Shown here piece by piece: positions 9,340 to 23,829 of a stretch of 32,000 nucleotides of DNA. A program made the translations under genes and the position numbers. Numbering within the stretch: the first letter of the stretch is position 1; the number at the start of each line of letters is the position of its first letter. The notes under the pieces are model-generated. The model was not told the DNA's origin. It worked only from the letters and a program-made list of their open reading frames with translations, and made no database searches. The stretch covers positions 1,300,104 to 1,332,103 of the forward strand of contig OY781100.1 in the NCBI GenBank assembly GCA_963676445.1, in the 5' to 3' direction. The stretch is from Anaerovoracaceae bacterium (GTDB lineage Bacteria > Bacillota > Clostridia > Peptostreptococcales > Anaerovoracaceae).

Positions 9340-10398
9340 TTACAGTTCCGCTGATACAGCAAATACATTAATATTATCGTTACAGGCATAAGGTCTATAT
9401 TGAGTTACACCAGTAACAGTGAAAACAGCATTAAGTCCCGATGGTGTAACACTTACCCATGTTGTTGCCATAGAAGGTATATTGCCAAGTGAAAAATGTG
9501 GGTATTGGAGGACGCTAACAGTAGGTGTAGTTCTCATCTTAACTGGAAATCCAAATGATACCCAAATTCCTGTAGCGCTTTCAGCGAATCCAACACCAAT
9601 CTGCTTTACATCTATGATTTGATAATACCTCTGGCACAACGCCAACTGCTCACCGTAATCTACTGGAGGATCGTTGGCAAGGGTAGATACGGAGCCAAGT
9701 TCGAGTTTCCAGCGGTATATATCAATGTCAATGGAACTTTCCAGTGTATTCCCGCACAGTATTTCAACTCCGAAATTCGTGACATCAACAGCCGGAGTGA
9801 AAGTATACGTCACATACGATTCAATTCCAGGAGTAACTGCTGAAATTAAACCGCGACCGTTGCTACCACTAATGGAACTGTACATTGAATCACATGGTCT
9901 GAGTACTAGGGTTCCAGATCCCGCATTCATCTTGCAATGAAGCGTCAAAGTGTAGGTTTGTCCGGCCCGAAGCATCTTTTCTGTAAACTGTATTATTCTT
10001 TTATAGTTTGCTATTGTATTTGATGTAAAATTAATGAAACCATCAAATACTGTTACAGTGCCCAGCATTATTTTCCAGCGATCAATAGCCTGAGCCCATG
10101 TGACTGTTGAAATATAACTGTCCTGCATTTTCTGATTCACTAATGCGTTTACAAAATCCCAATTATGCAAGAGGTTTCCGTTTGGAGATGCTGTTTTGTC
10201 AAGCTTAGTGCTGACTAAGTCCTCAAGCGCACTATCCCCCGCTGCCCTGGCAGCAGCCTCTGACGTGATGGCATCTGCATTCGCCTTTAGTGCAGAATCA
10301 ATCAATTCATTGTCATTATTAAAGTCTTCTCGTTTTATGTAGTCGTTCCCAAGCCATTGGTTCAGCTCATAATTTATTGTTTTATTTGTGCTTGCCAT
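9340..10398 (-). CDS. Tail fibre / receptor-binding protein (cassette 1)
   Basis: 352 aa. Has the fibre-type N-terminus (INYELNQW...D.N.N...ID) followed by alanine-rich coiled coil. Also contains ..DRW.. and WKLELGSVSTL....Y..QLALCQRYY, a motif I recall as widespread in phage tail-fibre proteins. Confidence 0.75.
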   Translation of the reverse strand: MASTNKTINYELNQWLGNDYIKREDFNNDNELIDSALKANADAITSEAAARAAGDSALEDLVSTKLDKTASPNGNLLHNWDFVNALVNQKMQDSYISTVTWAQAIDRWKIMLGTVTVFDGFINFTSNTIANYKRIIQFTEKMLRAGQTYTLTLHCKMNAGSGTLVLRPCDSMYSSISGSNGRGLISAVTPGIESYVTYTFTPAVDVTNFGVEILCGNTLESSIDIDIYRWKLELGSVSTLANDPPVDYGEQLALCQRYYQIIDVKQIGVGFAESATGIWVSFGFPVKMRTTPTVSVLQYPHFSLGNIPSMATTWVSVTPSGLNAVFTVTGVTQYRPYACNDNINVFAVSAEL

Positions 10399-10949
10399 TA
10401 CGATACCTCCTTGTAAACTTCAAACTCATCCCATGTCAGGTTCATCGCATCCCATTGGCCGCAAGTTTTACCGTAACCTTCAAATTGATTCCAGGTAATC
10501 CAGGTGTATTCAAAGGTATATGTTAAATGCGCGGGTTTGATTTGCTCAATTGTTGAAATAAGATCACTCATGTTTTCCGGAATACCCAACATGCCAACGA
10601 ACTTGATGTTAAAACTATGATTAGGCGGCTCTTCCGTTACTTCAACTTTGCCTTTGGAATAGGCGGCGGCAGTCTCAACGATCATTTGTTTTGTCACCGT
10701 CCCGATCCCGATCGCCTTAGCCTTGATTCGCTCTCTTCTGAATGTGTCACTCTTAGATGTGATCACCGCAAGCCCGAATATTTTCTCATACCTGCTTAAT
10801 AAACTCGACGAAGTAGATGCAAAGCATTCGTTCATCATTTTGCCAAAATCATCATACAATTCGGTGGCCTCTTCATTTATTATGATCTGCAATTCTTCCA
10901 TTGTGGTATTGCCGTCATAAATTGGCGGCAATAAGTCAAGAAAATCCAT
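10398..10949 (-). CDS. XkdU-like (DUF2313 / P2 gpI-like) baseplate protein
   Basis: 183 aa. N-terminal LLPPIYD and C-terminal IEQIKPAHLTYTFEYTWITW, as in the XkdU/YmfQ family. Immediately follows baseplate J. Confidence 0.7.
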   Translation of the reverse strand: MDFLDLLPPIYDGNTTMEELQIIINEEATELYDDFGKMMNECFASTSSSLLSRYEKIFGLAVITSKSDTFRRERIKAKAIGIGTVTKQMIVETAAAYSKGKVEVTEEPPNHSFNIKFVGMLGIPENMSDLISTIEQIKPAHLTYTFEYTWITWNQFEGYGKTCGQWDAMNLTWDEFEVYKEVS

Positions 10950-10950
10950 G

Positions 10951-11970
10951 TCACTCAGCCTCCGTTAGTGATATCATTCCAACAACCGGGATATCGGTAT
11001 CTTCAATGGTGATATTGGCAGTTCCTCCGTTAATTCGCAGCATATCATAATCTTGAACACCTGCCGTATCCAGCAGTAAGCTTCCAACCCTCGCGTAGCT
11101 GATAGAATAAGTAACAAATACGGTGCTCTTAAGGTATTCTTCAACAGAAGCTATAAATTCCGCTTGTACAGCGTTAAAAGTCTGTGATCCATTCAATAAG
11201 ACATTTGCGGAAACATTGATCGTCAGGCCAGAAGGACTGTCCACCTTGACTTCCGCCCCGATGGGCCTAACTGTTTCAATATAAGGAGCTACCGTGTCAG
11301 GTAAAGTTTCGTCAATTGTCATATCGCTGTCAACCACAAGAACTTTAACGGTTCCTGCTCCTCTCCAAAGAGGGATCACCTTTGCTTTTCCAACTCCGGG
11401 TACATCAAGTGCCCATTCTCTATAATTATCGGCATTACCTGATGTGCTAGGGGCTTGCACCCTCATATAGAATCTCTCTCTCAGCTTGCCGTCTGTTTCC
11501 TTTTCGGTACCGGCCGTTATAATATCTGTTAGAACAGCCGATACTCCGTTTACATTGTCTATATTTTCAAGCGTACCGTTATAGCCGTTCCCTATATCTC
11601 CCGGCTGTTCACAAATCGCTCGGTAGACATTGGAAGAGATCAGTTCTGTAACCTTATAGGTGGTATCACTTAAACCCCATCTGGTTCCGATGCTTACAGC
11701 TCCATTTGTTTCAATTTGCCTTATGGCAAAAGTCGCCGCTTTTCTGGTGATTCCGTAATCAGCCACGACCCGGTCAAGATATTCGCCCACTGCCGTATCA
11801 CCAAATACAAGGTCAAGAAAATGATTGAGATTGTAATAGGTCTGAGCAAGCTCGTATGCGCAGGGAGCTAAAGCATCGTAGATCACACTTCCTTCTCTCT
11901 TGTCCACATCGGATTTAACACGACTGAGCATATCACTTAGCAATCCTTCATAAGTTTTATCCGCAAACAT
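10951..11970 (-). CDS. Baseplate J-like protein (XkdT-like), first copy in module B
   Basis: 339 aa. Size, position after the XkdS-like gene and conserved N-terminal region are typical of the Baseplate_J family. Paralogous to 7780..8820 and, more distantly, to 28076..29122. Confidence 0.85.
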   Translation of the reverse strand: MFADKTYEGLLSDMLSRVKSDVDKREGSVIYDALAPCAYELAQTYYNLNHFLDLVFGDTAVGEYLDRVVADYGITRKAATFAIRQIETNGAVSIGTRWGLSDTTYKVTELISSNVYRAICEQPGDIGNGYNGTLENIDNVNGVSAVLTDIITAGTEKETDGKLRERFYMRVQAPSTSGNADNYREWALDVPGVGKAKVIPLWRGAGTVKVLVVDSDMTIDETLPDTVAPYIETVRPIGAEVKVDSPSGLTINVSANVLLNGSQTFNAVQAEFIASVEEYLKSTVFVTYSISYARVGSLLLDTAGVQDYDMLRINGGTANITIEDTDIPVVGMISLTEAE

Positions 11971-12368
11971 CAGACATTCACCTCTTTTGTTATCGTAATT
12001 TCTCCGTAAATGCTGACAACCTCGAAGGTACAGCGCATCTGATCCCCTGTCACTTCATAATTAAAATTGTCTACACTCTCAATTCGGTCGTCCCGAAGCA
12101 AGCACTCCTGAATTCTTCTTTTCAATTCGACTTTTACATAAGCAGCGTCCTTACCGATCAGGCTGTCCAGCTCGATCCCATAAGAGAAGCTATAAATCTG
12201 ATATTCGTACTTTTCCGTATTAAGCACCTTATATATCGCCTGCTTTAATGCGTCCAGTCCGTCCACATAGCCCTGAATATTCGCCTCTTCCAGTTTATAG
12301 GTCCTGCTTGTACCGATGGTTTCATGAATCGTTATATCCTCTGGGATTAATGCCGCAGGTGTTGTCAT
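11970..12368 (-). CDS. XkdS-like (DUF2634, gp25/W-like) baseplate protein
   Basis: 132 aa. Sits between the XkdR-like and baseplate-J genes with overlapping stops/starts. Size and order match PBSX xkdS. Confidence 0.6.
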   Translation of the reverse strand: MTTPAALIPEDITIHETIGTSRTYKLEEANIQGYVDGLDALKQAIYKVLNTEKYEYQIYSFSYGIELDSLIGKDAAYVKVELKRRIQECLLRDDRIESVDNFNYEVTGDQMRCTFEVVSIYGEITITKEVNV

Positions 12369-12598
12369 TGGTTAATCACCTCCAGAATGTAGAATTGCTG
12401 CCCTCCATGATTTCGCAGCAATCTCACTTTTTGTCCATTGATTAGCGATGATTTCAGGTTTCCGATCACCAGTTCATCCGGCAAAACCAATTTGTCATTT
12501 ATTTTAATGCCGCCGCTTGTTACCGTGCCCGTCATTAAACAACAAAGCGCCGCCGTATTCAGGTAATTCTGTACGACGGTTTTAATTTCATTTATCAT
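12365..12598 (-). CDS. XkdR-like (DUF2577) small baseplate/spike-associated protein
   Basis: 77 aa with ATGA overlaps on both sides. Size and order match PBSX xkdR. Confidence 0.55.
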   Translation of the reverse strand: MINEIKTVVQNYLNTAALCCLMTGTVTSGGIKINDKLVLPDELVIGNLKSSLINGQKVRLLRNHGGQQFYILEVINQ

Positions 12599-13533
12599 AT
12601 TGAAACCTCCATACTCATGGTATGTACCGGCAGAAAATTATGCGTCACTGATTTTACGATTAAATCCCGACCTAGCTTGATATCATTAATCCGTGCGTAA
12701 AAACTTGTTCCCGCTCGAACGCTTGTATCGCCAAGGCAGTCAAGGCTCAGACTCTCAACCTCATGATTATACAATTCCAAAAGTTGATCCGCTAAGTCTT
12801 TTACCTTTGCAGAATTAGCATTATTATCCAGTTTCATATAGTTTTGCATTAAGCCATATCGAGAGATGGAATTACTATCCCTTACAATATAGGTATCATC
12901 TTTTCCACTGGTATCATTTCTGCTCACAAGCTTGATCTGATTATAGAATTTATCATCAATTGATTGTTCATAGCTGAACCCATATACCATACTTTCATCG
13001 CCCAGGACCAGACTCAACCTTAAATTTTTGAGGGTTCTAAGTGCTATCTTTCCGAATTCATCGCGCAATACATATTTTTCACTCAGATGATCCCAAGTCT
13101 CGTTGATTCCGGAATATATAATATCAAGCCAAGTCTTATCGTATTGCAAACTGGTAGTCAGTATGTAGCCGGAATCGTCAAGAACTCCGACTTTCAATCC
13201 CAATGTAGCACACATTTTTTTTACCAAAGTCGTTACCGTATTTTCTTTAACGAGAATCGTATCCTTGGTTTTACAATATCTTAATTGATCGTAGGCAGTC
13301 ACGTTGATTTCTTTCCCTTTTCCTCTTCCATGTTTGAATACAAAGCCATAAAAGATTTTTGTGCCTTCGAACTCAAAACTGACAGCACTGCCGTTTGTTA
13401 TAATAAGATCATCATTTACATAAGTAAATTCCAATTTGCTGCAGCCACCATTTAAACTATCTCTATAGGATACTTTTGTCACCAGCTCACTTATTTCATA
13501 ATACGTACCATCAACAATTACTAAAAATTTCAT
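12595..13533 (-). CDS. XkdQ-like baseplate hub protein (gpD-like)
   Basis: 312 aa. Follows the LysM protein, with RBS GGTGAAGGA. Size and order match xkdQ/yqbQ-type hub proteins. Confidence 0.7.
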   Translation of the reverse strand: MKFLVIVDGTYYEISELVTKVSYRDSLNGGCSKLEFTYVNDDLIITNGSAVSFEFEGTKIFYGFVFKHGRGKGKEINVTAYDQLRYCKTKDTILVKENTVTTLVKKMCATLGLKVGVLDDSGYILTTSLQYDKTWLDIIYSGINETWDHLSEKYVLRDEFGKIALRTLKNLRLSLVLGDESMVYGFSYEQSIDDKFYNQIKLVSRNDTSGKDDTYIVRDSNSISRYGLMQNYMKLDNNANSAKVKDLADQLLELYNHEVESLSLDCLGDTSVRAGTSFYARINDIKLGRDLIVKSVTHNFLPVHTMSMEVSI

Positions 13534-13544: not shown

Positions 13545-14213
13545 CTACTCAGGTATGGTCAAAACCTGACCAGGGTAAATCAGAGAAGGATTCTTGATTT
13601 TATCCTTATTTGCGTTGTATATTTTAGTATATTTAGATCCATTACCGTATTGTACCTTCGCAATCGCCCATAACGTATCCCCGCTCACAACCGTGTATGT
13701 TCCAGAGTTCTTGGGATTAGTCTCTTCAGTAGCAGCGTTAACTTCCGGAACAATATGCAGTACAGAATCCACTAAAGTCAGCTGCTGCTTTTTTCCGTAA
13801 GGCTTATATTCAAGCAGGGAAAGCGATACGTATTTATCACCCTCTTCTCCAGCCCGTTCCGTTATATCCAAGTCCTTAATCAGCACCAACGTATTAATGT
13901 CATCACCAATACCATTTGTAGCAATAAAACGGACCGGGGTAAGCTTCTTGCGCCATCTTTCGAATTTTTTCAAATAATAGTCTGCATCTTTAAATTGATT
14001 GGGCGTTTCCACATAGCGATAGGGTTTTTTAGGAAGTTCACAGTCGAATGAATACTCTTTTAATTCCATTCTAGTCGGAACTGCAATCTGATCCAGACCC
14101 AGCACTTCATATTTCTCCACCGAAAGAGAACTTTTCACTTTTATTTCATCCGGGTTAACAGGCAGCCGGTAGGTTCTGTTTTTATAATCGAAGAAGATCG
14201 CATAATTACTCAT
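13545..14213 (-). CDS. LysM-domain tail protein (XkdP-like)
   Basis: 222 aa from ATG 14213 (RBS GGAGAGGGGG). The ORF-track start at 14240 would overlap the tape-measure end. C-terminal LysM: YTVVSGDTLWAIAKVQYGNGSKYTKIYNANKDKIKNPSLIYPGQVLTIP. Confidence 0.85.
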   Translation of the reverse strand: MSNYAIFFDYKNRTYRLPVNPDEIKVKSSLSVEKYEVLGLDQIAVPTRMELKEYSFDCELPKKPYRYVETPNQFKDADYYLKKFERWRKKLTPVRFIATNGIGDDINTLVLIKDLDITERAGEEGDKYVSLSLLEYKPYGKKQQLTLVDSVLHIVPEVNAATEETNPKNSGTYTVVSGDTLWAIAKVQYGNGSKYTKIYNANKDKIKNPSLIYPGQVLTIPE

Positions 14214-14214: not shown

Positions 14215-15936
14215 CTAAACCCCCTCTCCGGCAGTAGCAATCTGCTCCCTCAGAATTCTTTGAATTCGGCCTGCCACCTTATCCGCATCTGCCTCCTGAT
14301 GAATATCTCCAAATGACACTTGAATATTTGGCGCCACAGTAGCGGTGCTGAATTTATTGATGTAATCCCGTTCAGCAATATCACGCAGATACTGGATATC
14401 TTCTTCCGCCATGTCGACTGCAAGGTTTCCGTTCGCACCTGTCCCTTGAACTGAAATAGGATTATTGGGAGTGCCAAGGTCGTCTTTACTTGGAATTCCA
14501 GTAAAAGCAGTAGCATCAAACCCCTCAGTCATTCCGCCTAATTTATTATTCATGTTGGTATAATTATCGCTTCCCTTTTGAGCTCCTTTTTTATAAGCAT
14601 CAGAATAGCTTTTCAGTTCTTTGTATTCTTTCCCTTCTGTCTTGCCCTGATAGTAATCCAGGATTTTAATATCACTTCCAGTTATTTTATTTATTACGGA
14701 GACGACTTTATTAATGCCGTCAATAATGCCATTAAACAATCCGCTGATAAACTTATCAATCCACACTCCGATATTTGATATTGCCACAGGAATGTTTTCG
14801 AGCCAGGTGGTAAAGACACCGATCGCACCACCAACAAAACTAAAAATATCTTGTAATGAAACTCCAAGCTTCCCTAAGAGATTAATAACTATTACAATAA
14901 CTGCAACGATACAAATGATCGTCCAATTTGCTACGATAAAAGCAGCGGCAGCAGTCCATGCAGCAGTAGCGACAACCCATAAATTTGCAATCATTGCTGC
15001 AAGCAACACCCCGCCTATCGTTTCGAGAATAGGCGCTATATAGTCTAAGATGCCGACTATCCAATTCAATACATTGCCGACTGTATAAATTCCAGTTATA
15101 ATCACCGCCAGAAATTTTTGAAAGCCACCCGAATTAATAATCTTACTTACTCCTTCAATTACACCACCGAATGCTTGAAGTGCTGCATTCTTAATACGCT
15201 GCCAAATATCGTTAAAGGTCATAGGCATATTGAAAAATGCATCATTAATATTTGCTGATGCTGCAAACATCGATTTTTTGAGAATATCAGCTGTAAGCGT
15301 TCCTTGTTCTGCCATCTTTCTTAGACCATCTGCAGATTTGCCTGTAAAATCTTCCATGGCTTTCAACATCATTGGCGCAGTTGATGTAATCGTATCAAAG
15401 TCTCCTTCTTGAATCGTTCCCGATCCCATAGCCCCGATCACTTGATCCATTCCAGCCGACTGGGTTTTCGCATCTGTGCCACCCAGTTTCAAAGATTTTT
15501 GAGTTAATTCAGTAAAGGACAAAATTTCATTATTTGATCCAAAGGTATCCCCCGCAGCGGATGCAAGATCAGCAAAAGTATTGACCATATCGGAATAAGA
15601 GCTTCTGGATCTATTGGCAGCAGCAAATACATTATTCTGAAGCTCTGCCTGTGTCCCTAGTTCATTATTGACTGCCTTTAATCTCGTCTGTAAACGCACA
15701 TAATTATCAGCTATCTCCATTCCTCGTTTGACCTTTTCCATATCAAAAAATTTACCAAACCCGCCGAATGCCGATTTTGCTTGTTCTGCTGTGCTATTCA
15801 GTTTTCGATTAAATGTATCTACTTCGCCGTATGCTTTTTTAACCGTTGCCGCTGCTTTATCGGCAAATTTCGATACCGCTTCAAATGAACCGGAAGAGTT
15901 CCCCAGCAGCGTCAATGAAGCTGTCAATGTACTCAT
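14215..15936 (-). CDS. Tail tape-measure protein (XkdO-like), module B
   Basis: 574 aa from ATG 15936 (RBS GGGAGGAAAAGGTG). The track start GTG 16050 is an upstream extension in the same frame. It has helical N-terminal regions, a hydrophobic core of about 90 aa (FLAVIITGIY...INLLGKLGV), and lies between the chaperone and LysM genes. Confidence 0.85.
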   Translation of the reverse strand: MSTLTASLTLLGNSSGSFEAVSKFADKAAATVKKAYGEVDTFNRKLNSTAEQAKSAFGGFGKFFDMEKVKRGMEIADNYVRLQTRLKAVNNELGTQAELQNNVFAAANRSRSSYSDMVNTFADLASAAGDTFGSNNEILSFTELTQKSLKLGGTDAKTQSAGMDQVIGAMGSGTIQEGDFDTITSTAPMMLKAMEDFTGKSADGLRKMAEQGTLTADILKKSMFAASANINDAFFNMPMTFNDIWQRIKNAALQAFGGVIEGVSKIINSGGFQKFLAVIITGIYTVGNVLNWIVGILDYIAPILETIGGVLLAAMIANLWVVATAAWTAAAAFIVANWTIICIVAVIVIVINLLGKLGVSLQDIFSFVGGAIGVFTTWLENIPVAISNIGVWIDKFISGLFNGIIDGINKVVSVINKITGSDIKILDYYQGKTEGKEYKELKSYSDAYKKGAQKGSDNYTNMNNKLGGMTEGFDATAFTGIPSKDDLGTPNNPISVQGTGANGNLAVDMAEEDIQYLRDIAERDYINKFSTATVAPNIQVSFGDIHQEADADKVAGRIQRILREQIATAGEGV

Positions 15937-16133
15937 CACCTTTTCCTCCCTTTCTTCGGTATATTTTTCGGAGCATGCTTCTTTTCTTCCTCTACGCGTA
16001 TTATGATACTCCCGTAAATAAACGCTTTTTCCTCGTGGCTCATGGAGCACAGTTGAGAAGGAAGGATATGCAATTTTTGAAGGGCAAAGTGCGCAAGATT
16101 GAAATCCGCATCACCCTGCCTTATTCGTTTTTT
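15936..16133 (-). other. -1 frame extension of the tail assembly chaperone (predicted frameshift product, G/GT-type)
   Basis: My own translation: after a slip on A_AAA_AAC, the -1 frame is open for 63 codons (RIRQGDADFNLAHF...KNIPKKGRKR). It stops at TGA 15938..15936, overlapping the tape-measure ATG. Confidence 0.65.
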
Positions 16134-16525
16134 ACTTCATCAATGTCCTTGTTAATGTCCTTGTCAAGCCCGCTCAGCTCCTGAACCGCCTGCGCAAGAT
16201 TTGCAAACTCGCCGATCAGCAGCATGTTCTTGAGGGTCTCCGATTCCCCCAGACCATACTTATCCTGAAGCTTTGCATCGGAAAGGTCAGGCTCGACAAC
16301 GGCGCAAGCGGTCAATGCCTGGACATACTCCGTTCGATTAAAAGTCTCCACGCCCTTTTTGTCGGTCTTTGTAAATTTCTTGATCAGCTGTTCATTCTCT
16401 TTCTGAGTAATGGGCTTTATGATAAACGGAACCGGATTACCGCCTTCGCCTATAAAACGTTCCGAAACAATAACCTCTCTGTTTCCTAGTTGTACCGGAT
16501 TTAAAAATGCTTTTAATGAACTCAT
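16121..16525 (-). CDS. Tail assembly chaperone (XkdN-like), zero-frame product
   Basis: 134 aa between the tube and tape-measure genes. The sequence (MSSLKAFLNP....V.VSERF...G.P.PF.IK.IT..E...L) fits my recollection of the XkdN family. A slippery site lies at its 3' end. Confidence 0.7.
   Translation of the reverse strand: MSSLKAFLNPVQLGNREVIVSERFIGEGGNPVPFIIKPITQKENEQLIKKFTKTDKKGVETFNRTEYVQALTACAVVEPDLSDAKLQDKYGLGESETLKNMLLIGEFANLAQAVQELSGLDKDINKDIDEVKNE
16127..16133 (-). promoter_or_regulatory. Canonical -1 programmed ribosomal frameshift heptamer A_AAA_AAC
   Basis: The plus-strand gtttttt at 16127..16133 reads AAAAAAC on the minus strand. In the chaperone frame it reads GTA AAA AAC GAA TAA, which places the X_XXY_YYZ site one codon before the stop. 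Confidence 0.7.
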
Positions 16526-16578
16526 TCTCGTATACCTCCTGAGTTATGAATGAAAGAAAGGAGCACAAGGCTCCTTTC

Positions 16579-17055
16579 TTATCTGTAATTTTCCGGAAGC
16601 GTAAAGCTTTCCAATACGTTGATTCCGTCATAAGTAAAGTCCGTATCAAAGGTAATTGGATCATCGGAGCTGTCATCGAGCGTAGCAACAGGTATGGATG
16701 CAAAGATAACATTTGTCATTACGACTTCCTGTCTTCCGATGGTGGATTGCGTATCCTCGTTATACACCTGCAGCGTAATTCCCGTGTAACTGCCTTCTTT
16801 CAGATAAGCCAGTGCCTGTTTCAGCACTTCACTATTCATGAAATACATCGTCAAGCTGCCAGTTCCCTCGGCTCCCGTCACTTTATGCTGCGTCATCCGG
16901 CTGCCAAGCATTCTTTTTGCCGAGACTGTTAAATCCAGCTGCGCCTTTAAGCTAGAAACCTCAAAGAGTTCTCTGTTGGAGCCGTTGATTGTGATATAGG
17001 CCTTACCCTCATGAGAGGATATCGTATCCGCGATTCTTGTATAGTTATCTGACAT
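16579..17055 (-). CDS. Tail tube protein (XkdM-like)
   Basis: 158 aa, immediately downstream of the sheath gene. Size and sequence style (..GKAYITINGSNRELFEVSSLKAQLD..GTGSLTMY..) are typical of XkdM-type tube proteins. Confidence 0.75.
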   Translation of the reverse strand: MSDNYTRIADTISSHEGKAYITINGSNRELFEVSSLKAQLDLTVSAKRMLGSRMTQHKVTGAEGTGSLTMYFMNSEVLKQALAYLKEGSYTGITLQVYNEDTQSTIGRQEVVMTNVIFASIPVATLDDSSDDPITFDTDFTYDGINVLESFTLPENYR

Positions 17056-17070
17056 TGTTTTATCCCCCTT

Positions 17071-18117
17071 TTAAGATAAGTTCACTGTAATATAGATTTT
17101 TTCTACGCTGTCAACCGGCTGAACATAGCATTCAATCACGACAGCATCCGAATCAGTCCCCGCTGAAACTACAACATCATCCTCGGTAAAATTCTGAATA
17201 GCGGACAAATTTTGAAGCTCACTGAAATACTGCACCAAGGTTGCCCGCAGCAATGCTCTTCCGTCGGCGTTGTTGTTCGTTTTGCCAATGTAGTTTGATT
17301 CAAAAATTTCTACGATATCATTGTTGATACCGTCTACCGTTCTCATCACTCTGTTTTTCCTGAAAAGTTCGCCCTTGTCCACGGTATATGAAACCAGTGA
17401 GTTGATATCATACACAGCAGTTACATTCTGCGCGGAATCGACTTTAAAAATAAACTTTCCGGCCGATACGGCAGCTTCCATTTCGCTTTTGGTCATTCTT
17501 GGCGATACATCAATAGCATCGATGTATTTTTTTCCTGTATTCGACTGGTAAATTGCGGCTCCCGCAGTTACCCCGGCTACCCAGGCAGTGGTCTGGGCAT
17601 TGGACAGTACGGTTCCGTTAGAAAGCTTCACACCTTGCGTAACGTTGATCACACCTTCATAATCTCCGTCGTAATCTGCCATAACTGCCTGTATTTTACG
17701 TCCTTCCGTATCTCTCATCGCCGCGATCCAGGTTCTGATCGAGGACTGATTATCCGCATATGTTGCCGCGCCAAAAGGATAGCAAAGAGTATTAAATTCA
17801 ATTGTCTTTAACGCTTCCAATGCGTTGGAAAGCACCGTCGAAGTATGTTCGGAGCCCAGGTTATATACGATAACCGTTTTGGCCCCCTTTAGCGCCTGAT
17901 TGACCAGAAGTTTATCGCTATCCGCTGCTCCAACAGGATATTCACTCGCATCGGTTGCAGTAATGATATACATCTCTCCTGCCGCTCCGACCGACATCTC
18001 CTGCAGCAATGCGACAGTCCCTCTGTCACCGGGTGTAATTGACAGTGCTGCATTCGTAAGAAAGTTTATGTAAGCACCCGGTAATATTTTGTTTTGGCTG
18101 GTCCATGTTCCTCCCAT
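17071..18117 (-). CDS. Contractile tail sheath protein (compact form)
   Basis: 348 aa. The N-terminus MGGTWTSQNKILPGAYINF is a hallmark of Firmicute phage and tailocin sheath proteins. RBS GGAGG. Followed by the tube gene. Confidence 0.85.
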   Translation of the reverse strand: MGGTWTSQNKILPGAYINFLTNAALSITPGDRGTVALLQEMSVGAAGEMYIITATDASEYPVGAADSDKLLVNQALKGAKTVIVYNLGSEHTSTVLSNALEALKTIEFNTLCYPFGAATYADNQSSIRTWIAAMRDTEGRKIQAVMADYDGDYEGVINVTQGVKLSNGTVLSNAQTTAWVAGVTAGAAIYQSNTGKKYIDAIDVSPRMTKSEMEAAVSAGKFIFKVDSAQNVTAVYDINSLVSYTVDKGELFRKNRVMRTVDGINNDIVEIFESNYIGKTNNNADGRALLRATLVQYFSELQNLSAIQNFTEDDVVVSAGTDSDAVVIECYVQPVDSVEKIYITVNLS

Positions 18118-18135
18118 GATTAATCCTCCGTTTCA

Positions 18136-18552
18136 TTAAATATTGGTTGATGTTTCTGCTTGCTGCATATAAGTTATGTCTTCAGCTTTCATTTCTGAGT
18201 AGCTGATGTCAAAGGTTACATGCAGCACGTTTTCTGTGATTTGAGCATTTTTATTCCTGACCCGATACGCGCCTACCGCATTGAATGCCTTTAGTATCAT
18301 TTCCTGAACTCCGCAGCAATCTGCTCTGATTTCCGTTGTGGCTTTATCGCTGAAGTAGGCAAGGTCAAAGGATAATGTGCTCTGATATTTGGTATTCAGC
18401 TTTTTGCCGTATACCTGCTTGGTTATCATAATTAAAAAATAAGGCGCCGTGGAATCTGCAGGAGCACTCTCATCAAATACCTTGTAGCCGTCTGCTACGG
18501 GAAATAATGTGCTCAGCTTGTCCACGATCGCCTGTTTGACGTCGTTGATCAT
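18136..18552 (-). CDS. Tail completion / terminator-like protein (XkdJ position)
   Basis: 138 aa with RBS GAAGGTGA, directly upstream of the sheath gene. The assignment rests on position and size only. Confidence 0.45.
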   Translation of the reverse strand: MINDVKQAIVDKLSTLFPVADGYKVFDESAPADSTAPYFLIMITKQVYGKKLNTKYQSTLSFDLAYFSDKATTEIRADCCGVQEMILKAFNAVGAYRVRNKNAQITENVLHVTFDISYSEMKAEDITYMQQAETSTNI

Positions 18553-18694
18553 GTGTTATCACCTTCTTTACAAGTTCCGTTTAATACGAAACAACTTATG
18601 TCTAATCTAATGGCTAAGGATATGACATTCGAGGCGCCTCCTCATTAGCAACTAGTAACTATTATTCATCAATGTTTACTGCTGCTCTATCTAC

Positions 18695-19510
18695 TTAAAC
18701 ATTACGTAATTTTCGCAATTGCTCTTTCTCAGATTCAAATACTATTTTTCGGTCTTCCCCCAAAATCTCATCAATTTTGCTAAGTGATTCTATTAATTGG
18801 CCTAACTCAATAATGTTCAAACTTGCCAAATGATCTGACCCTGGTAACTGCTTATTTAATGTTATATGTCTTTCAATAATCTGAGCTCCTAGTGATTTTG
18901 CTACTAATGTAGGTAAGAATCCTTCTTCATGGCCGCTATAGCCGATTTTGTAATTAAAGTACTTTTCCTTCATAGTTACTATGTAGTTTAAATTCATTTC
19001 GCTGGTTTTACAGGGATAAGAGCTATTGCAATGAAGGATACCAACGAGATTATGAAGATTCTGAACAGCTTGAGATATTTCATACTCCGTGCTCATTCCG
19101 GTACTAATAATTACATCCATCCCATAAGAGTTCACTCGCTCTAGCAAATCGATATTAGTTATACAGGCACTAGGAATTTTAACGAACGGAATATCATATT
19201 GACCAATAAAGTTTAAACTATCGACATCCCAGACACTAGCGCTCCAAAGGATCGATTGTTCCTTACAAAACTTTTCTATTTCATCGTATTCCTTTTTCCC
19301 AAACTCAATCTTATGTCGGTAGTCAATATAGTCCATTCTTCCAAATATTGAATCCTTTTTAATATGCTTTTGGTCTTCTGGAACACACACTTCCGGACTC
19401 CGTTTTTGAAATTTAACAACATCAGCGCCGCATCGTTTAGCTTCATAAATTAATCTCTTAGCTATTTTCAAATCACCATTATGATTGATTCCTATTTCTG
19501 CTATAAACAT
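18695..19510 (-). CDS. NeuB-family (sialic/pseudaminic/legionaminic-acid-synthase-like) PEP-condensing enzyme lacking the SAF domain
   Basis: 271 aa. N-terminal FIAEIGINHNGDLKIAKRLIYEAKRCGADVVKFQKR is the classic NeuB/SpsE/PseI signature. The protein ends shortly after ..ERHITL...PGSDH.ASL.., with no room for the ~60-aa C-terminal SAF domain. It overlaps the upstream gene by 10 nt. Confidence 0.8.
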   Translation of the reverse strand: MFIAEIGINHNGDLKIAKRLIYEAKRCGADVVKFQKRSPEVCVPEDQKHIKKDSIFGRMDYIDYRHKIEFGKKEYDEIEKFCKEQSILWSASVWDVDSLNFIGQYDIPFVKIPSACITNIDLLERVNSYGMDVIISTGMSTEYEISQAVQNLHNLVGILHCNSSYPCKTSEMNLNYIVTMKEKYFNYKIGYSGHEEGFLPTLVAKSLGAQIIERHITLNKQLPGSDHLASLNIIELGQLIESLSKIDEILGEDRKIVFESEKEQLRKLRNV

Positions 19511-20172
19511 ACTCCTCTACTCTCCTTCTCGTACTTCCACTTGGCAAATTCATAATCTTCCTGAGTATCAACATCAATAGTCTCATCATTGGGAATAAGT
19601 AATGGCAAAAATCCATTCTTCAACATGTACCCATCCTCAAAGAACATATTTTTATGAAATATGTGAAAACAGTGTGCAGTCTGATAAAGTGGCTTAATCT
19701 CTTTTGTTGAAAGTCTTTTATAATCAATCTCATTTATAGCCTTTCCATTCTTTTCAATAATCCAGTTTTGTAAAAGCTTAACGCTGGTGGCATAATCGGC
19801 TTCGGATTGCTGAAATTGGTAGATAGCATTACAGATTGTTTCACGCTTCAAAAAAAGCAGGCAAGGGTTTAAGAACATCAAATGGGAATCTATGACCGTC
19901 TCTAAGTCACGAAAGATAAACGACAAAGGTCCTTCTGCTTCAACACTATCCTTGCTGCGCCAAATAATCTGTATATTCGAGTAACGTGCAGCAATTTCAC
20001 CAAGTTCAGTATCATAAATAAGAACATATCTATTGATATCTTCCGGCATACTATTAATTTTTTGACAAGCAATATCAAATAAACACGTCTCACCTATTGG
20101 TAAAATAAGTTTCCTTGGCAATCGCTCGCTTGTGAGTCTAGCAGGTAAAAACACTCCTATCTTCTTATTCAT
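19501..20172 (-). CDS. Cytidylyltransferase of the CMP-sugar synthetase / SpsF (CTP_transf_3) type
   Basis: 223 aa from ATG 20172, an 8-nt overlap with the radical-SAM stop. The track start at 20262 is an upstream extension. N-terminal IGVFLPARLTSERLPRKLILPIG matches the ARxGSxRLPxK loop of this family. Confidence 0.7.
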   Translation of the reverse strand: MNKKIGVFLPARLTSERLPRKLILPIGETCLFDIACQKINSMPEDINRYVLIYDTELGEIAARYSNIQIIWRSKDSVEAEGPLSFIFRDLETVIDSHLMFLNPCLLFLKRETICNAIYQFQQSEADYATSVKLLQNWIIEKNGKAINEIDYKRLSTKEIKPLYQTAHCFHIFHKNMFFEDGYMLKNGFLPLLIPNDETIDVDTQEDYEFAKWKYEKESRGVCL

Positions 20173-20983
20173 AACGAATACTATTCCTTCCCTGTGTATA
20201 TCTACCACCATTATGATTACAGTAATAGCACGGTGAGGCTTTATCATAAATACCCTTTTCACAATTATGCCGGAAAGTCGTTGCCTTTTGAGATTTTAAA
20301 ATATCTGTTAAAGAATTTTCATATAAATCCCCTATGATAAACGGTTTCTGTGTGTTGATGTCATTTCTGATATTGCAACAGGGGGAAACTGTCCCATCAT
20401 AATTGACTCCTACAAAATATGAGGGCTCTAAGCATTGACAATTCCTTTTTATCAAAGAATACTCCGGCAAGGTTCCCCCTCGGTCTGTAATCTTAGCTTT
20501 ATTATCTAGCCAGTCAACGAAATATAACATCTGTAAATCTCCTCGGTGAGCAAATATATATGGATATGCAATCTCATCAATGTCAGCACCCCAGGATTCT
20601 AATTGTTCGGCACACACTTCTACGCCCTTTTTGTCATAATCCATGATGGTTAATTCATTAATCAATAAGTTATCCAGCACTTCTATACACAAAAAATCGC
20701 CATTGGTATTGGTTATTAGTTTATTTCTTGGTAATATATGTTTAATCCGTTTCAATCTTTGCTTAAAAAGCTCTACATGCGAGAAAGGCTCATTGAATCT
20801 TGAAAAAGTTATTGCACCTTGATATTCATTTACTCGCAGTTCATATAGTAAAGATAATAAAATATCCTCTCCAAGTTCTATGTTCTCTTTTCTCCTATTC
20901 ACAAAACGGTTTGGGCACCAAAGACAAGTTCTATTACAATTTGAAAAAAGTTCGATTTCAATCAACCTTAAATTTTGTATCAT
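20165..20983 (-). CDS. Radical SAM enzyme with SPASM/twitch-like C-terminal cysteine motifs
   Basis: 272 aa. CNRTCLWC (CX3CX2C) at residues 16-23. C-terminal CX12GX4C (CLEPSYFVGVNYDGTVSPC) and CYYC. ATGA overlap with the upstream gene. Confidence 0.8.
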   Translation of the reverse strand: MIQNLRLIEIELFSNCNRTCLWCPNRFVNRRKENIELGEDILLSLLYELRVNEYQGAITFSRFNEPFSHVELFKQRLKRIKHILPRNKLITNTNGDFLCIEVLDNLLINELTIMDYDKKGVEVCAEQLESWGADIDEIAYPYIFAHRGDLQMLYFVDWLDNKAKITDRGGTLPEYSLIKRNCQCLEPSYFVGVNYDGTVSPCCNIRNDINTQKPFIIGDLYENSLTDILKSQKATTFRHNCEKGIYDKASPCYYCNHNGGRYTQGRNSIRYE

Positions 20984-21669
20984 AGCCTATTCACCGCCTT
21001 CCATTTAAAAAATGCCTCTTCCCCATTAACAAAATCAACGGGTTTTATCTGTCCATGATATTCAAATAATAGCCAGCTTAGATACATTGAATACCTAATT
21101 AAAATTTGATCTATTTCTGCAAGGTGATTTGTAGTAACATAGTATAATGATTTTCCAATTTTCTTAAAATCTGAAAAGCGATGTTTTGTTTTATAGAATC
21201 TTTTTATGTCGTTTTCTGGAAAAAATAGCTTCATGGCATATTGAGTTTTGAGCTCCTTTTGAGTAGCAAATCCTGTATTGATATCATCAATAATAACTGC
21301 CATAACCTTTCTGTTACTGTTAATGCTTTGGAGGGCATCATATCTATGCCCTCCTTCTTTTATTCGACCATCACGATAACAAATAAATGCCCAATACGTC
21401 CCGTTCTTTTCGATATCTTCTCCTAAAGATTTCAGAAACAAACCGGAGTTTATGAATCTATCATTATACACTTTGCTACGGTCTGTATAGTTACCACTAT
21501 ATCTCGGAAGAAGTTCTTTATAGTTGACATATTTCACTTCTGCTCGATAAGCTTTAATATATTCCAAAAGGTTCTCGAAGTATCCCAGATACAATTGAGT
21601 TACCTCCTGTACGGAGAAGTGTTCTTTCGTGAAATATTCTTGACCACAAATAGGATAAAGTTGTATCAT
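20980..21669 (-). CDS. Hypothetical protein with a possible ParB/Srx-like (ParBc) core
   Basis: 229 aa from ATG 21669 (RBS TAGGAGG). The track start at 21747 is an extension. The segment LKSLGEDIEKNGTYWAFICYRDGRIKEGGHRYDALQSINSNRKVMAVII aligns by eye to the ParB N-terminal pattern (..SI...G...P......I.DGHHR..A......). This is a weak call. Confidence 0.35.
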   Translation of the reverse strand: MIQLYPICGQEYFTKEHFSVQEVTQLYLGYFENLLEYIKAYRAEVKYVNYKELLPRYSGNYTDRSKVYNDRFINSGLFLKSLGEDIEKNGTYWAFICYRDGRIKEGGHRYDALQSINSNRKVMAVIIDDINTGFATQKELKTQYAMKLFFPENDIKRFYKTKHRFSDFKKIGKSLYYVTTNHLAEIDQILIRYSMYLSWLLFEYHGQIKPVDFVNGEEAFFKWKAVNRL

Positions 21670-21677
21670 AAAGCCTC

Positions 21678-21911
21678 CTATAAAATGATATTGCATTGGG
21701 AGCATTGACCCGAATCTTCTGGCATAATATAATGACATACAGGGCAATAAATTTTTCCATTCATCTCGGAATTAAGTATTGGATTTTCTGGAAGAGCAAT
21801 AATCTCTTCAAAGATATCGAAAGTATTTCCATACATTAATTCAGCGACTTCAAGTGACTCAGCAATGATTCGATTAACATACTCTCCATTTTTTTTTATT
21901 ATAACATTCAT
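21678..21911 (-). CDS. Small protein with C-terminal Cys4 zinc-ribbon-like motif
   Basis: 77 aa from ATG 21911 (RBS GGAGACAGG), 9 nt after the glycine-rich gene. C-terminus CPVCHYIMPEDSGQCSQCNIIL. The N-terminus (MNVIIKKNGEYVNRIIA) resembles those of small phage tail-cluster proteins. Confidence 0.6.
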   Translation of the reverse strand: MNVIIKKNGEYVNRIIAESLEVAELMYGNTFDIFEEIIALPENPILNSEMNGKIYCPVCHYIMPEDSGQCSQCNIIL

Positions 21912-21919
21912 CCTGTCTC

Positions 21920-22795
21920 CTATATATAATACCCAACGACAATAACACCTTGGCATCCATTACCACCTTTGGCTGAAACTCCGTTATAGAATCCCGAACC
22001 GCCACCCCCACCACCAGCTCCAAATTTGCTTCCATCGGAACCTTGATAAGCGGTCGTAGCACCCTCTCTTCCGGTCGGACCGTTTCCTCCAGTGCCTCCA
22101 CCACCAGCACCTCCCTTTCCTCCAGGATAAGGTATTGAATATTGCCCATCTGAATCAGAGTCACTTTCCCAGGCACCGCCCCCACCACCACCGCCACAAT
22201 AAACAGCACCAGTAAACGGATTAATACATGGAAAATAGTTTCCAAGCCCTCCAATTATATAGTGCCCATCAGAGGGTTCCATTAATCCATCTTCACCTTT
22301 GCCTCCTGTAATTCCACTTCCCCCATTTCCTCCTGCAGGATGTTGTCTTCCTTGATGTCCTCCACCACCTCCTCCCGTACCGCCTCTCGGTGCTCTATAT
22401 GATCGGGATCCTATATATTCATCTGGACTAGCCGAAGTAGGATTTCCTCTTCCTCCCAAAACAGAAACTGATCCTAAAGAGGTAGCCCCCCCATCAGTTC
22501 CGTAGTGCATATTCCCACCATAACCTGTTCTAGCTCCACCGATGCCTCCAGAACCTATAACAGCTGATAGAGTTTCACCTGACGTTACATTTATTCTATT
22601 AAACGAAGCATATCCGCCACCTCCACCAGGTCCTCCTGCATAAGTGCTGCCGCCACAACCGCCTCCTCCGCCGCCAACAAGGAATACATAAAGTTCACTC
22701 ACTCCGTATGGAACAGTAAATCTCCCTGAAGATGTAATTTCTACTGTCTTCAAAGCTTTAGTTCCGCCGCCGCCACATCGAATCATAGTAGTCAT
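21920..22795 (-). CDS. Glycine-rich (poly-G block) tail-associated protein
   Basis: 291 aa from ATG 22795 (TAATG overlap with the fibre stop, RBS GAGGGGGGA). The track start at 22855 is an extension. It has more than ten G-rich blocks (GGGGGGCGG, GGPGGGGG, GGTGGGGGG, CGGGGGGG, GGKGGAGGGGTGGNG...) separated by short beta-like segments, plus several Cys residues. Confidence 0.7.
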   Translation of the reverse strand: MTTMIRCGGGGTKALKTVEITSSGRFTVPYGVSELYVFLVGGGGGGCGGSTYAGGPGGGGGYASFNRINVTSGETLSAVIGSGGIGGARTGYGGNMHYGTDGGATSLGSVSVLGGRGNPTSASPDEYIGSRSYRAPRGGTGGGGGGHQGRQHPAGGNGGSGITGGKGEDGLMEPSDGHYIIGGLGNYFPCINPFTGAVYCGGGGGGGAWESDSDSDGQYSIPYPGGKGGAGGGGTGGNGPTGREGATTAYQGSDGSKFGAGGGGGGSGFYNGVSAKGGNGCQGVIVVGYYI

Positions 22796-23829
22796 TACGC
22801 ATCCCCCCTCACCGTGAATACTACAGGAATATTTATCGTAGGTTTTGTACCCCATGCTCTCAACGTTACAGAATTCGTGGTCTGAGAGTAGCCAATAATA
22901 TTAGCAGCTTGCAGCGCTTGTAGTTGCGCCTGCGTAATTGAAGTTGCAGGCGTCAGATCCTGGTTGCTGACAGCGGTAACACCCGGGACAATTACTGTAT
23001 ATATATAAGGTGCCGATGATCCTGACCATGACGACGACGATAATGTTACAGATACAGATTTGGATTTCGTGGCAACAGCTACTCCGTTTGCCTGTACCGT
23101 ACCAGTCCCTTTAGAGATTAGATTTAACGATACATTTGTGTCTCCACCTGAGGCCGAGATCGACGGAGCACTTCCTGTAACTGCATTTTTTACAGTAATC
23201 TCATTGACTGCCGATGATACAACCGATGAAGCTTTAATAAGTTCATTGCCATTAGCATCTGCAATATAGCCTCCACTGGCAATCTTGGGAGCGGTTAAAC
23301 TTTTATTTGAAAGAGTTTCCGATTTAGAAGCCTGCGACGCATCAGCACCTTGGCTTAACAATTGAAAATAGCTTTCATCATAGATAACCTGAATAATTTT
23401 TCCTGCCGTTATATCGCCGGTTAGCAAGGCGGTCGAGGTTTCACGAACTATATTTACAGCACCAAGCCCATTGACGTTCAGACTAGCCACAGTAGAGTTC
23501 GCAGTTGGGCATTTCACATAGAGCGGAACCCCTATAAGCTGAGAGTATGCTGTTATACCCTCAATAGTAATGGAATATGCATCGGTTGATCCCGAATCAA
23601 GCGCATAATAAATATGATGACTGTAGTCTGATTTATGTGCTTCAATTGATTCTGAATTTTCTATGTCTGCCTCTGCCCGCGCTACTGCCTCCGAGGCAAT
23701 CCCATCCGCATTAACTTTCAATACCTGATCGACCGTGTCAAAATTATCATTCAGATCTTCAATGTCAATCACATCTGTGGATTGCGGCTTATTTAAGTCA
23801 TAATTCGATGTAGTAAGCATAGTTATCAC
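22795..23829 (-). CDS. Tail fibre protein (module A, short fibre)
   Basis: 344 aa. Fibre-type N-terminus (SNYDLNKPQSTDVIDIEDLNDNFDTVD), then a coiled-coil-like alanine-rich stretch. ATGA overlap with the upstream XkdU-like gene. Confidence 0.7.
   Translation of the reverse strand: MITMLTTSNYDLNKPQSTDVIDIEDLNDNFDTVDQVLKVNADGIASEAVARAEADIENSESIEAHKSDYSHHIYYALDSGSTDAYSITIEGITAYSQLIGVPLYVKCPTANSTVASLNVNGLGAVNIVRETSTALLTGDITAGKIIQVIYDESYFQLLSQGADASQASKSETLSNKSLTAPKIASGGYIADANGNELIKASSVVSSAVNEITVKNAVTGSAPSISASGGDTNVSLNLISKGTGTVQANGVAVATKSKSVSVTLSSSSWSGSSAPYIYTVIVPGVTAVSNQDLTPATSITQAQLQALQAANIIGYSQTTNSVTLRAWGTKPTINIPVVFTVRGDA

Follow-up and report, generated by a model that had tools for sequence, protein, structure and literature searches.

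Two complete phage-tail gene sets lie back to back without head genes, and the second of them is in the window, by which we mean the whole 32,000-nucleotide stretch analysed here. The gene map places all window genes on the minus strand, and this second set, module B, runs from position 18552 down to about 4171. We consider it probable that module B is a complete head-less R-type tailocin gene set and that it follows module A as the other half of a twin cluster of tailocins. The evidence consists of directly observed features, namely gene content, homology, the fold of the cap protein, the lack of head genes, synteny, purifying selection and a conserved frameshift site. To judge from these, module B most likely makes DNA-free killing particles (tailocins).

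Gene content of module B

In coding direction, module B comprises the following features.

18136..18552, minus strand: tail terminator (collar), first gene of module B, 138 aa (Pfam Phage_tail_terminator_8, E = 8e-20)
17071..18117, minus strand: compact tail sheath, 348 aa (Pfam Gp18_domIII_N, Phage_sheath_1, Phage_sheath_1C)
16579..17055, minus strand: tail tube, 158 aa (Pfam DUF2001, E = 1e-36)
16121..16525, minus strand: XkdN-type tail assembly chaperone, 134 aa (Pfam Phage_TAC_5, E = 1e-33)
15937..16133, minus strand: slippery heptamer A_AAA_AAC (16133-16127) and 64-codon -1 extension (sequence inspection)
14215..15936, minus strand: tape measure, 573 aa (Pfam TMP_3, E = 4e-40)
13545..14213, minus strand: LysM protein, 222 aa, in the gene position of the diffocin tube tail CD1367 (Pfam LysM)
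12595..13533, minus strand: baseplate hub, YQBQ/XkdQ-like, 312 aa (Pfam YQBQ, E = 2e-97)
12365..12598, minus strand: small spike-position protein, 77 aa (weak DUF2577 match; position conserved in all relatives)
11970..12368, minus strand: sheath initiator, 132 aa (Pfam Sheath_initiator, E = 1e-32)
10951..11970, minus strand: baseplate wedge, Baseplate_J/Tri2, 339 aa (Pfam, E = 1e-56; diffocin TRI-2 CD1371, E = 8.5e-45)
10398..10949, minus strand: Mu gp48-like wedge in the Tri1 position, 183 aa (Pfam Phage_Mu_Gp48, E = 4e-26)
8902..10398, minus strand: strain-variable fibre, 352 aa, and its 141-aa partner (the latter matching phrog_24451)
5767..8820, minus strand: second wedge and fibre cassette with Baseplate_J (346 aa), gp48-like protein (262 aa), fibre (275 aa) and a 110-aa protein (Pfam)
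4171..5477, minus strand: lysis cassette of M23 peptidase, holin and a 109-aa protein matching phrog_4105 (Pfam Peptidase_M23, Phage_holin_1)
4734-5477, minus strand: M23 peptidase, 247 aa (Pfam Peptidase_M23)
4505-4717, minus strand: holin, 70 aa (Pfam Phage_holin_1)

A reading of this DNA from its letters and open reading frames, made earlier and called here the sequence-only reading, had proposed that module B is head-less and begins at a terminator-like gene, that one 138-aa structural gene precedes the sheath with non-structural enzymes beyond it, and that the order runs from sheath, tube and a chaperone with a frameshift through tape measure, LysM and Xkd-like proteins to fibres and lysis genes. 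Pfam places the terminator first, with no head genes between the modules, and agrees with this order; Pfam and NCBIfam together agree on the region 5' of the sheath. Capsid, portal, protease, terminase and connector families gave zero matches among the window ORFs in Pfam searches. When the fold of an AF2 model of the terminator (pLDDT 86) is compared with the PDB, the diffocin collar 8v3t_L ranks first (E = 4e-7, TM 0.66), ahead of lambda gpU, the monocin cap and the pyocin R2 collar. The sheath matches DSY3957 (1e-79) and diffocin CD1363 (2e-34) in the PDB, the former being the nearer, and the hub has no hydrolase domain by Pfam and zero sequence matches in the PDB. The positional role of CD1367 that we apply to the LysM protein comes from PMC10996793.

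The chaperone ORF ends on the heptamer in the correct frame, and the 64-codon ORF in the -1 frame stops exactly at the tape-measure ATG at 15936, a start set from the reading frames and the 573-aa homologue in locus L054. The predicted frameshift product has 196 aa. Since the heptamer is kept in 51 of 51 homologues spanning 33-99% amino-acid identity, the predicted -1 site is genuine on this evidence. Module B is also under purifying selection, with dN/dS of 0.00-0.26 at dS of up to 0.7 and every ORF at full length; dN/dS is 0.016 for the sheath (against L054 and L052), the tube is 100% identical in amino acids to that of four other contigs while dS reaches 0.42, and the LysM protein is 100% identical to its L054 counterpart.

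The distal part is more variable. No blastn match to the 8902..10398 fibre region was found in strains that are otherwise 94-98% identical. The second Baseplate_J shares 50% identity with the first, mostly in the N-terminal part of the alignment, and paired wedge/fibre cassettes also occur in L014, L042 and L052-L055. The endolysin gene is preceded by a hairpin (5533-5516) and a promoter-like site (5726-5698), which may make the lysis genes a transcription unit of their own. The flank 3' of the lysis genes was viewed as far as the CotH gene; a CotH-family protein is encoded in or beside the cluster.

Complete prophage relatives and the missing head genes

The sheath is 348 aa long, against 354 aa in diffocin, 446 aa in DSY3957 and 460 aa in Lin1278. 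It has no counterpart of the inserted domain of about 90 residues in the latter two, which are PBSX-type sheaths and about 100 residues longer; the sequence-only reading was correct in calling the sheath shorter than that type. Its use of the compact sheath as a sign of a tailocin does not hold: among 45 related loci whose sheath is 345-350 aa long, 14 are complete prophages, in which genes for terminase, portal, scaffold and capsid come directly 5' of the terminator. Complete phages thus use B-type tails too, and killing is not a specialisation of the tail as such. In Clostridia, complete B-type myovirus prophages (such as L022, from an uncultured member of the Eubacteriales) resemble module B from terminator to fibres at 54-76% amino-acid identity and share the 348-aa sheath. 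Unlike module B, these prophages have a small and a large terminase gene, an SPP1-type portal, a Mu F-like protein, and scaffold, capsid and head-tail joining genes directly 5' of the terminator. Three small genes, encoding proteins of 112 aa, 111 aa and 136 aa (the last HK97 gp10-like), lie between capsid and terminator in these complete relatives, and module B has none of them. In the sheath, the nearest isolated phages reach only 41% identity.

Head modules were clearly lost in the module B lineage, complete prophage relatives exist, and some standalone B-type clusters keep a remnant of a 189-aa scaffold protein before the terminator. All three observations would suit a decaying prophage remnant that makes nothing useful. 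We regard this as very unlikely, as the module B ORFs are intact and of the same lengths as in relatives, dN/dS is low, the frameshift heptamer is kept and the head-less layout is maintained across several genera. Similarly improbable is that module B (or module A) tails receive heads in trans from a prophage elsewhere and become infectious or transducing virions. The module B terminator does belong to a complete-phage family (41-54% identity), and module A retains a head-tail adaptor Ad1-like gene (98 aa, phrog_40), but module B starts exactly at the terminator without the three small genes, and no head genes lie within the cluster in relatives, or in the 12 kb upstream of it in the near-identical contig ctg97500l.

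An R-type locus should have a complete contractile set, no genes for heads, packaging or DNA replication, and chromosomal regulators and lysis genes without an integrase. Module B has sheath, tube, tape measure, baseplate, fibres and cap. No capsid, portal, terminase or DNA replication genes occur in the window, and the whole cluster is seen head-less in near-identical and related genomes. The lysis genes are in the window; regulators and a housekeeping flank are found in ctg97500l, a 3.6-Mb reference contig (loci L001, L054 and L058) that is 94-99% identical to the window in conserved parts.

Module A, the accessory cassette and the fused cluster

On the coding strand, ctg97500l has housekeeping genes, a divergently transcribed XRE-type repressor, a cro-like gene, small genes, a 141-aa sigma-like activator, a promoter-like site with a leader hairpin, module A as a diffocin-type tail with fibres, an optional NeuB/radical SAM cassette, module B, the second wedge and fibre cassette and, last, the M23 endolysin and holin. 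The corresponding features of the window upstream of module B are given below.

21920..32000, minus strand: distal part of module A, diffocin-type (Pfam)
18695..21956, minus strand: low-GC accessory cassette, GC 0.345 (Pfam, NCBIfam)
20165-20983, minus strand: radical SAM/SPASM enzyme (Pfam, NCBIfam)
19501-20262, minus strand: cytidylyltransferase (Pfam, NCBIfam)
18695-19510, minus strand: NeuB-family synthase (Pfam, NCBIfam)

Within the window, module A includes the end of its tape measure, LysM, hub, spike, sheath initiator and Baseplate_J genes, followed by a 1223-aa fibre, a gp48-like protein, a 344-aa fibre and a Gly-rich protein. Its sheath matches diffocin CD1363 over the full length (E = 1.8e-86), its Baseplate_J matches diffocin TRI-2 (8e-62) and its hub matches the CD1368 hub domain (1e-55), in an alignment limited to CD1368 residues 2-322. 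By these matches module A is a clear diffocin homologue. The sheaths of modules A and B are 31% identical and their tubes match weakly (24-31% where detected); on this comparison module B is a lineage separate from module A.

The region 5' of module A lies outside the window, and relatives indicate that module A would begin without head genes. In ctg97500l and in SRR6824423_71 it has none and starts right after the block of repressor, cro-like and sigma-like genes. The 12 kb further 5' in ctg97500l hold only housekeeping genes (NDK, pantoate ligase, spore photoproduct lyase, DinB and SRAP), and no integrase was found in that cluster or those 12 kb. The sequence-only reading had offered two roles for module B, a bacteriocin or tails that dock to heads of "module A's phage". 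The head-less, diffocin-related R-type layout is upheld by the TRI-2 match and the collar fold; the docking partner falls away, as module A is head-less in relatives and adjoins housekeeping genes.

The accessory cassette is lodged at the fibre end of module A. Besides the three enzymes it encodes proteins of 255 aa and 92 aa, both without family matches, and then meets the Gly-rich end of the module A fibre region. Homologous cassettes occur in L054 and in the large viral contigs L061-L064, where they are placed between tail fibre and lysis genes, and the A-B junction has no cassette in four other genomes. What had been read as a sugar operon between the modules is, on this distribution, a phage-borne, strain-variable cassette and not an unrelated host operon.

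At least eight further genomes or contigs from Anaerovoracaceae and related bacteria also carry the A-to-B tandem. Head-less tandems are present in L052, L053, L057 and the isolate Anoxybacterium hadale CP042469, and more distant forms in L003, Clostridium aminobutyricum DSM 2634 and Anaerovorax odorimutans DSM 5092. The window, L001/L054, L052, L053, L057 and L059 share two tail modules, one regulatory block and lysis genes, with neither regulators nor lysis genes between the modules; for the window this rests on the gene map and gaps, the regulatory block being seen in related loci. Right before the terminator, standalone B-type clusters have regulators of their own, either an ImmA/HTH pair with a sigma-like gene or an HTH gene with a 180-aa gene; the tandem copies lack these. 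Between strains, conservation 5' of the module B start codon extends over only 14-41 nt, and a sigma-70 consensus scan of 18553-18694 found no sigma-70-like promoter and no terminator-like site, although a promoter of the sigma-like factor could escape it. As module B lacks regulators of its own, conserved upstream sequence and recognisable promoter or terminator signals before it, we infer that modules A and B are co-transcribed.

Comparison with known particles and proposed function

Diffocin of Clostridioides difficile (CD1362-CD1374; PDB 8V3T, 8V3W) is a head-less R-type particle from another member of the Peptostreptococcales (PMC10996793). The gene order of collar, sheath, tube, chaperone, tape measure, tube tail, hub, spike, sheath initiator, Tri2, Tri1 and fibres is shared. 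Module B is more distant from diffocin than module A is, matching it in sheath and wedge by sequence and in collar by fold. The 581-aa diffocin hub CD1368 carries a C-terminal lytic transglycosylase and endopeptidase domain with which diffocin crosses the Gram-positive wall (PMC10996793), whereas the hubs here, of 338 aa (module A) and 312 aa (module B), lack this hydrolase domain; the tape measures have 524 and 573 aa against 817 aa in diffocin. Unlike diffocin, two tail modules are fused in one cluster.

Fused multi-tailocin clusters are known from Pseudomonas, as R and F pyocins and Rp2/Rp3/Rp4 combinations (PMC4684702), and are built alike, with a single regulatory block ahead of two tail modules and with lysis genes at the end. 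They belong to another phylum and derive from other phage ancestries, with the holin before the tail genes, spanins and PrtN/PrtR regulation, in contrast to the sigma-like activator and the distal M23 endolysin and holin seen here. We found no description of a twin-tailocin layout for any Gram-positive, including anaerobes, in the literature searched. Monocin, which the sequence-only reading had named as a comparator for sheath and tube, is an F-type particle (PMC11830787).

PBSX-type defective prophages of Bacillus (XkdK/M/N/O/P/Q/R/S/T/U) have the same tail families in the order XkdN, LysM XkdP-like, XkdQ-like and Baseplate_J XkdT-like. In PBSX itself, the genes for terminase, portal and capsid are retained and DNA is packaged; head and packaging genes are absent here, and we rejected this class. 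The marker genes of extracellular contractile injection systems of the Afp/PVC type are likewise missing, as Pfam gave zero matches to AAA+ ATPase, toxin and effector families among the window ORFs.

We infer that particles are formed and are bactericidal. Derepression would switch on the activator, and a single long late transcript would run from module A through into module B. The two tail sets would assemble apart; their sheaths are 31% identical and their tubes match only weakly. Each tail would be built on a hub, spike, LysM baseplate core and wedge belonging to its own set, have its length fixed by its own tape measure and be capped by its terminator (collar). Holin and endolysin would release the particles, whose variable fibres would bind related strains, and contraction would kill without DNA delivery. 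That both hubs lack a peptidoglycan hydrolase domain counts against killing. Together with the unexplained enzyme cassette and the CotH-family protein, it fits particles that are not bacteriocins and instead deliver a payload as an extracellular contractile injection system or have lysis-linked roles. We hold this to be unlikely, given the absence of ATPase, toxin and effector families and the resemblance to phage tails and diffocin in gene order, in the frameshift of the chaperone, in the lysis cassette and in fibres that vary between strains.

Extending the tailocin reading, one inducible Anaerovoracaceae operon might yield two structurally orthogonal contractile killing particles with three target specificities, by way of the two module B wedge/fibre cassettes. 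The NeuB, cytidylyltransferase and radical SAM cassette might tune specificity or self-immunity through a nonulosonic-acid-type sugar placed on the fibres or the producer surface. We put this extension forward as a rather doubtful proposal. The fibre-linked enzymes are in any case a separate lead on phage-tail-associated sugar chemistry.

To our knowledge, few Gram-positive tail-like bacteriocins have been studied, chiefly diffocin and monocin, with efagins added by a recent preprint. Diffocin is under engineering as a precision antibacterial, and the modules described here offer natural scaffolds with shorter tape measures and hubs free of the hydrolase domain. They also provide a test case for how two related tails in one cell avoid cross-assembly, with a cultured host, Anoxybacterium hadale, on hand. 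The cluster joins a diffocin-type module to another tail lineage that was domesticated independently, both under a single regulatory block, in a twin layout that is conserved over several anaerobe genera while its fibre regions are exchanged between strains.

Gene order of module B and its flanks

All long ORFs of modules A and B, the two tail gene sets that lie in series in the window, are on the minus strand and closely packed.

Features of the window, in order of transcription
32000 to ~21920, minus strand: distal part of module A, in the order tape-measure end, LysM, YQBQ hub, small spike-position protein, sheath initiator, Baseplate_J, 1223-aa fibre, Mu gp48-like, 344-aa fibre, Gly-rich protein
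21956-18695, minus strand: low-GC block (enzyme cassette) with 92-aa and 255-aa proteins, radical SAM/SPASM, cytidylyltransferase, NeuB-family synthase
18136-18552, minus strand: module B terminator, the first gene, 138 aa
After the terminator: 348-aa sheath, tube, XkdN-type chaperone
14215-15936, minus strand: module B tape measure
After the tape measure: LysM, hub, 77-aa protein, sheath initiator, Baseplate_J, gp48-like, fibre and its 141-aa partner
Distal end of module B: second Baseplate_J, gp48-like and fibre set, then M23 peptidase, holin, 109-aa protein

The block at 21956-18695 has a GC content of 0.345, versus 0.42-0.45 in its flanks; its NeuB-family synthase lacks the usual C-terminal part, its 92-aa and 255-aa proteins gave no match, and 142 nt separate the cassette from module B. 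No ORF of the window matched any family of capsid, portal, protease, terminase or connector proteins. The sequence-only reading described the genes correctly at the coordinates it gave. A gene for an 878-aa CotH-family protein with repeated C-terminal segments (281-2917) lies 3' of the lysis cassette, from which it is separated by an AT-rich gap and a strong hairpin (~3690-3716).

A frameshift in the chaperone gene had also been proposed, and is borne out. The ORF ends in GTA AAA AAC GAA TAA, and the slippery heptamer A_AAA_AAC (16133-16127) is in the right register for a -1 slip. A stretch of 64 codons is open in the -1 frame, and its stop falls exactly at the ATG of the tape measure, which gives a predicted frameshift product of 196 aa. 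The heptamer was found at the same place in 51 of the 51 chaperone homologues compared, down to 33% identity, while the adjacent codons vary.

The 138-aa terminator was modelled from 45 homologues (pLDDT 86, pTM 0.77). The best match of this model among solved structures was the collar of diffocin, the R-type tailocin of Clostridioides difficile (8v3t_L; E 4e-7, TM 0.66), followed by lambda gpU, the monocin cap and the pyocin R2 collar. PDB sequence searches with the terminators of both modules did not recover the diffocin collar, which was found by fold comparison alone. Module B thus starts at the cap protein of a finished tail.

All module B ORFs are equal in length to those of relatives. 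Measured against two further tandem loci (L054 and L052), the sheath has a dN/dS of 0.016 at a dS of 0.24, and the tube one of 0.000 at a dS of up to 0.42; the chaperone stands at ~0.03 and the wedge proteins at 0.09-0.26. Module B is under strong purifying selection, which counts against a decaying remnant.

Search for head genes upstream of module A and across related loci

The order of genes upstream of module A was read in ERZ21831104 ctg97500l, a 3.6-Mb metagenome contig (overlapping loci L058, L001 and L054), in place of the window's own flanks. This contig was reached by an exact-sequence look-up of the module A LysM protein; such look-ups of the module B sheath, the holin and the CotH protein gave no record. 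The contig matches the window at 99% identity over 26063-32000 and at 94-97% in the core of module B; DinB homologues place its host in Anaerovoracaceae.

Order of genes in ctg97500l
First: housekeeping genes (NDK, pantoate ligase, spore photoproduct lyase, M20 peptidase, old-yellow-enzyme-type reductase, DinB, SRAP)
Second: divergent XRE-type repressor, cro-like gene, small genes
Third: 141-aa sigma-like regulator (phrog_36; weak Sigma70_r4_2)
Fourth: 98-aa head-tail adaptor Ad1-like protein and a 198-aa protein
Fifth: terminator, 353-aa sheath and the rest of module A
Sixth and seventh: homologous enzyme cassette, then module B

No capsid, portal, terminase or integrase gene was found in these three loci. 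It had been suggested that module B might instead build tails that dock to heads encoded by the phage of module A. Since module A of ctg97500l is also head-less, this alternative is without a basis in the genomes examined.

A scan of one genome per species yielded 50 loci with a B-type sheath, that is, one of the tail lineage of module B; in 45 of them the sheath is 345-351 aa long and 59-84% identical. Window proteins and head proteins were mapped onto the ORFs of these loci, with head-less calls for distant loci based on BLAST with one head set and a Pfam tally of the 25 commonest families. Fourteen loci are complete prophages. In L022, a Pfam check placed small and large terminase, SPP1-type portal, Mu F-like, scaffold, capsid and HK97 gp10-like genes immediately upstream of the terminator. 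Head genes were not found in the 8-10 kb upstream in at least 21 loci; in 11 of these an ImmA-type peptidase, an HTH repressor and a 148-aa sigma-like gene adjoin the terminator, and the remainder adjoin housekeeping genes or a replication gene. An apparent BLAST "scaffold" match in L013 was rejected, as it is a flagellin beside housekeeping genes.

The B-type module directly follows the fibre genes of another tail module in three loci (L003, Clostridium aminobutyricum DSM 2634 and Anaerovorax odorimutans DSM 5092), and exact look-up gave further A-to-B tandems in L052, L053, L054, L057 and the isolate Anoxybacterium hadale (CP042469). In L060, module B stands alone, accompanied by an HTH gene of its own and a 180-aa gene. 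From these gene contexts we conclude that head-less B-type tails have been retained repeatedly, either next to regulators of their own or in fusion with a diffocin-type module that precedes them. The compact sheath, which the sequence-only reading took as a hint of a tailocin, was rejected as a tailocin mark: the 14 complete prophages carry a sheath of the same size, making it a trait of the lineage.

In the standalone head-less clusters L011 (8936-9505) and L043 (8772-9341), the sigma-like gene and the terminator are separated by a 189-aa gene of the Phage_scaffold family, which looks like a vestige of a deleted head module. In L056 (ERZ21873832 ctg9780l, 17697-18614; 4.6-Mb genome), where the module A sheath is 75% identical, the gp48-like gene is directly followed by a gene for an rve-family transposase, encoded on the opposite strand. 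No module B was found in the ~3.4 kb of this locus beyond the transposase gene, and fibre genes and a CHAP-domain protein precede the module.

Lineages, fibres and the enzyme cassette

The module A sheath aligns end to end with CD1363 of diffocin (E 1.8e-86), its Baseplate_J protein matches TRI-2 CD1371 (8e-62), and its hub matches the hub-hydrolase CD1368 over residues 2-322 only (1e-55); by these matches module A is assigned to the diffocin type. The module B sheath is 31% identical to that of module A and closest to DSY3957 (1e-79), without the inserted domain of the latter. The module B wedge protein matches TRI-2 at 8.5e-45, and a PDB sequence search with the module B hub gave no match. 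Compared in this way, module B is placed in a lineage distinct from that of module A. The tape measures are 524 aa long in module A and 573 aa in module B. The diffocin parts list (PMC10996793) corresponds one-to-one with each module except at the hub: the diffocin hub bears a C-terminal hydrolase domain, whereas this peptidoglycan hydrolase domain of CD1368 is absent from the hubs of both module B (12595-13533) and module A (29806-30822). Neither tail module was seen to encode another domain that degrades the wall; LysM domains were all that was found.

Module B contains two consecutive wedge and fibre cassettes (5767-8820 and 8902-11970), and the doubling recurs in L014, L042 and L052-L055. 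Its two Baseplate_J proteins are 50% identical overall, mostly in the N-terminal part of the alignment, and divergent beyond, and BLAST found no similarity between its two gp48-like proteins. The doubled cassettes suggest alternative receptor-binding sets on one tail. The 1223-aa fibre gene of module A (24451-28122) carries a direct duplication: 300-nt copies at 25478-25777 and 26237-26536 are 96% identical and start 759 nt apart. This duplication is missing from the near-identical strain, whose homologous region has gene calls of 607 aa and 181 aa.

The "sugar operon" of the sequence-only reading is the low-GC enzyme cassette. Enzyme cassettes lie at 18695-21956 in the window, 3876-8373 in L054 and 4441-8837 in L061, and are absent from four other A-B tandems. 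The cassette proteins of the window and ctg97500l are 24-44% identical, versus 95-99% in the flanks. IMG/VR viral contigs of 92-125 kb carry this gene set as well, with tail or tail-fibre genes on one side of it and endolysins on the other; it is fullest on L061 (two paralogues of the 255-aa protein, radical SAM/SPASM, cytidylyltransferase, small protein, cupin and NeuB). The cassette is therefore phage-associated and is joined to the fibre end of module A. The 255-aa protein had no match in Pfam, NCBIfam or PHROGs, and its single-sequence AlphaFold model had a pLDDT of 32. We found no literature report of NeuB and radical SAM cassettes beside tail fibres.

Probable expression and relation to known tailocins

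L001 (4657-4770) and L057 (2616-2730) have a promoter-like TTGTCA-N17-TAATAT in common, placed after the sigma-like gene and ahead of the first gene of module A. The hairpin with a T-run downstream of it may act as a leader terminator that is controlled by antitermination or by an activator. A second late promoter before module B was considered and rejected, as the motif has no copy in the window at up to 3 mismatches and the L001 intergenic region has no 8-mer in common with 18553-18694. A consensus scan of 18553-18694 found no promoter-like or terminator-like site, strains have only 14-41 nt in common upstream of the module B terminator, corresponding to the ribosome-binding region, and no tandem has regulator or lysis genes between A and B. 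From this we infer that module B would be transcribed by read-through from module A; both modules would share one set of regulators and one set of distal lysis genes. In the 289 nt ahead of the endolysin gene (5478-5766), the coding strand has a hairpin that resembles a terminator (5533-5516) and a site that resembles a promoter (5726-5698), so the lysis genes may form a separate transcription unit.

According to one report (PMC10538166), R-type tailocins are common among solvent-producing clostridia, where the elements keep their head genes and sit at separate sites. Diffocin is a single cluster in C. difficile; the cluster described here is a putative twin tailocin cluster. As we found neither a fused twin cluster described in a Gram-positive nor tail-like particles described in Anaerovoracaceae in the literature, we judge the cluster to be a new variant of a kind that is already known.
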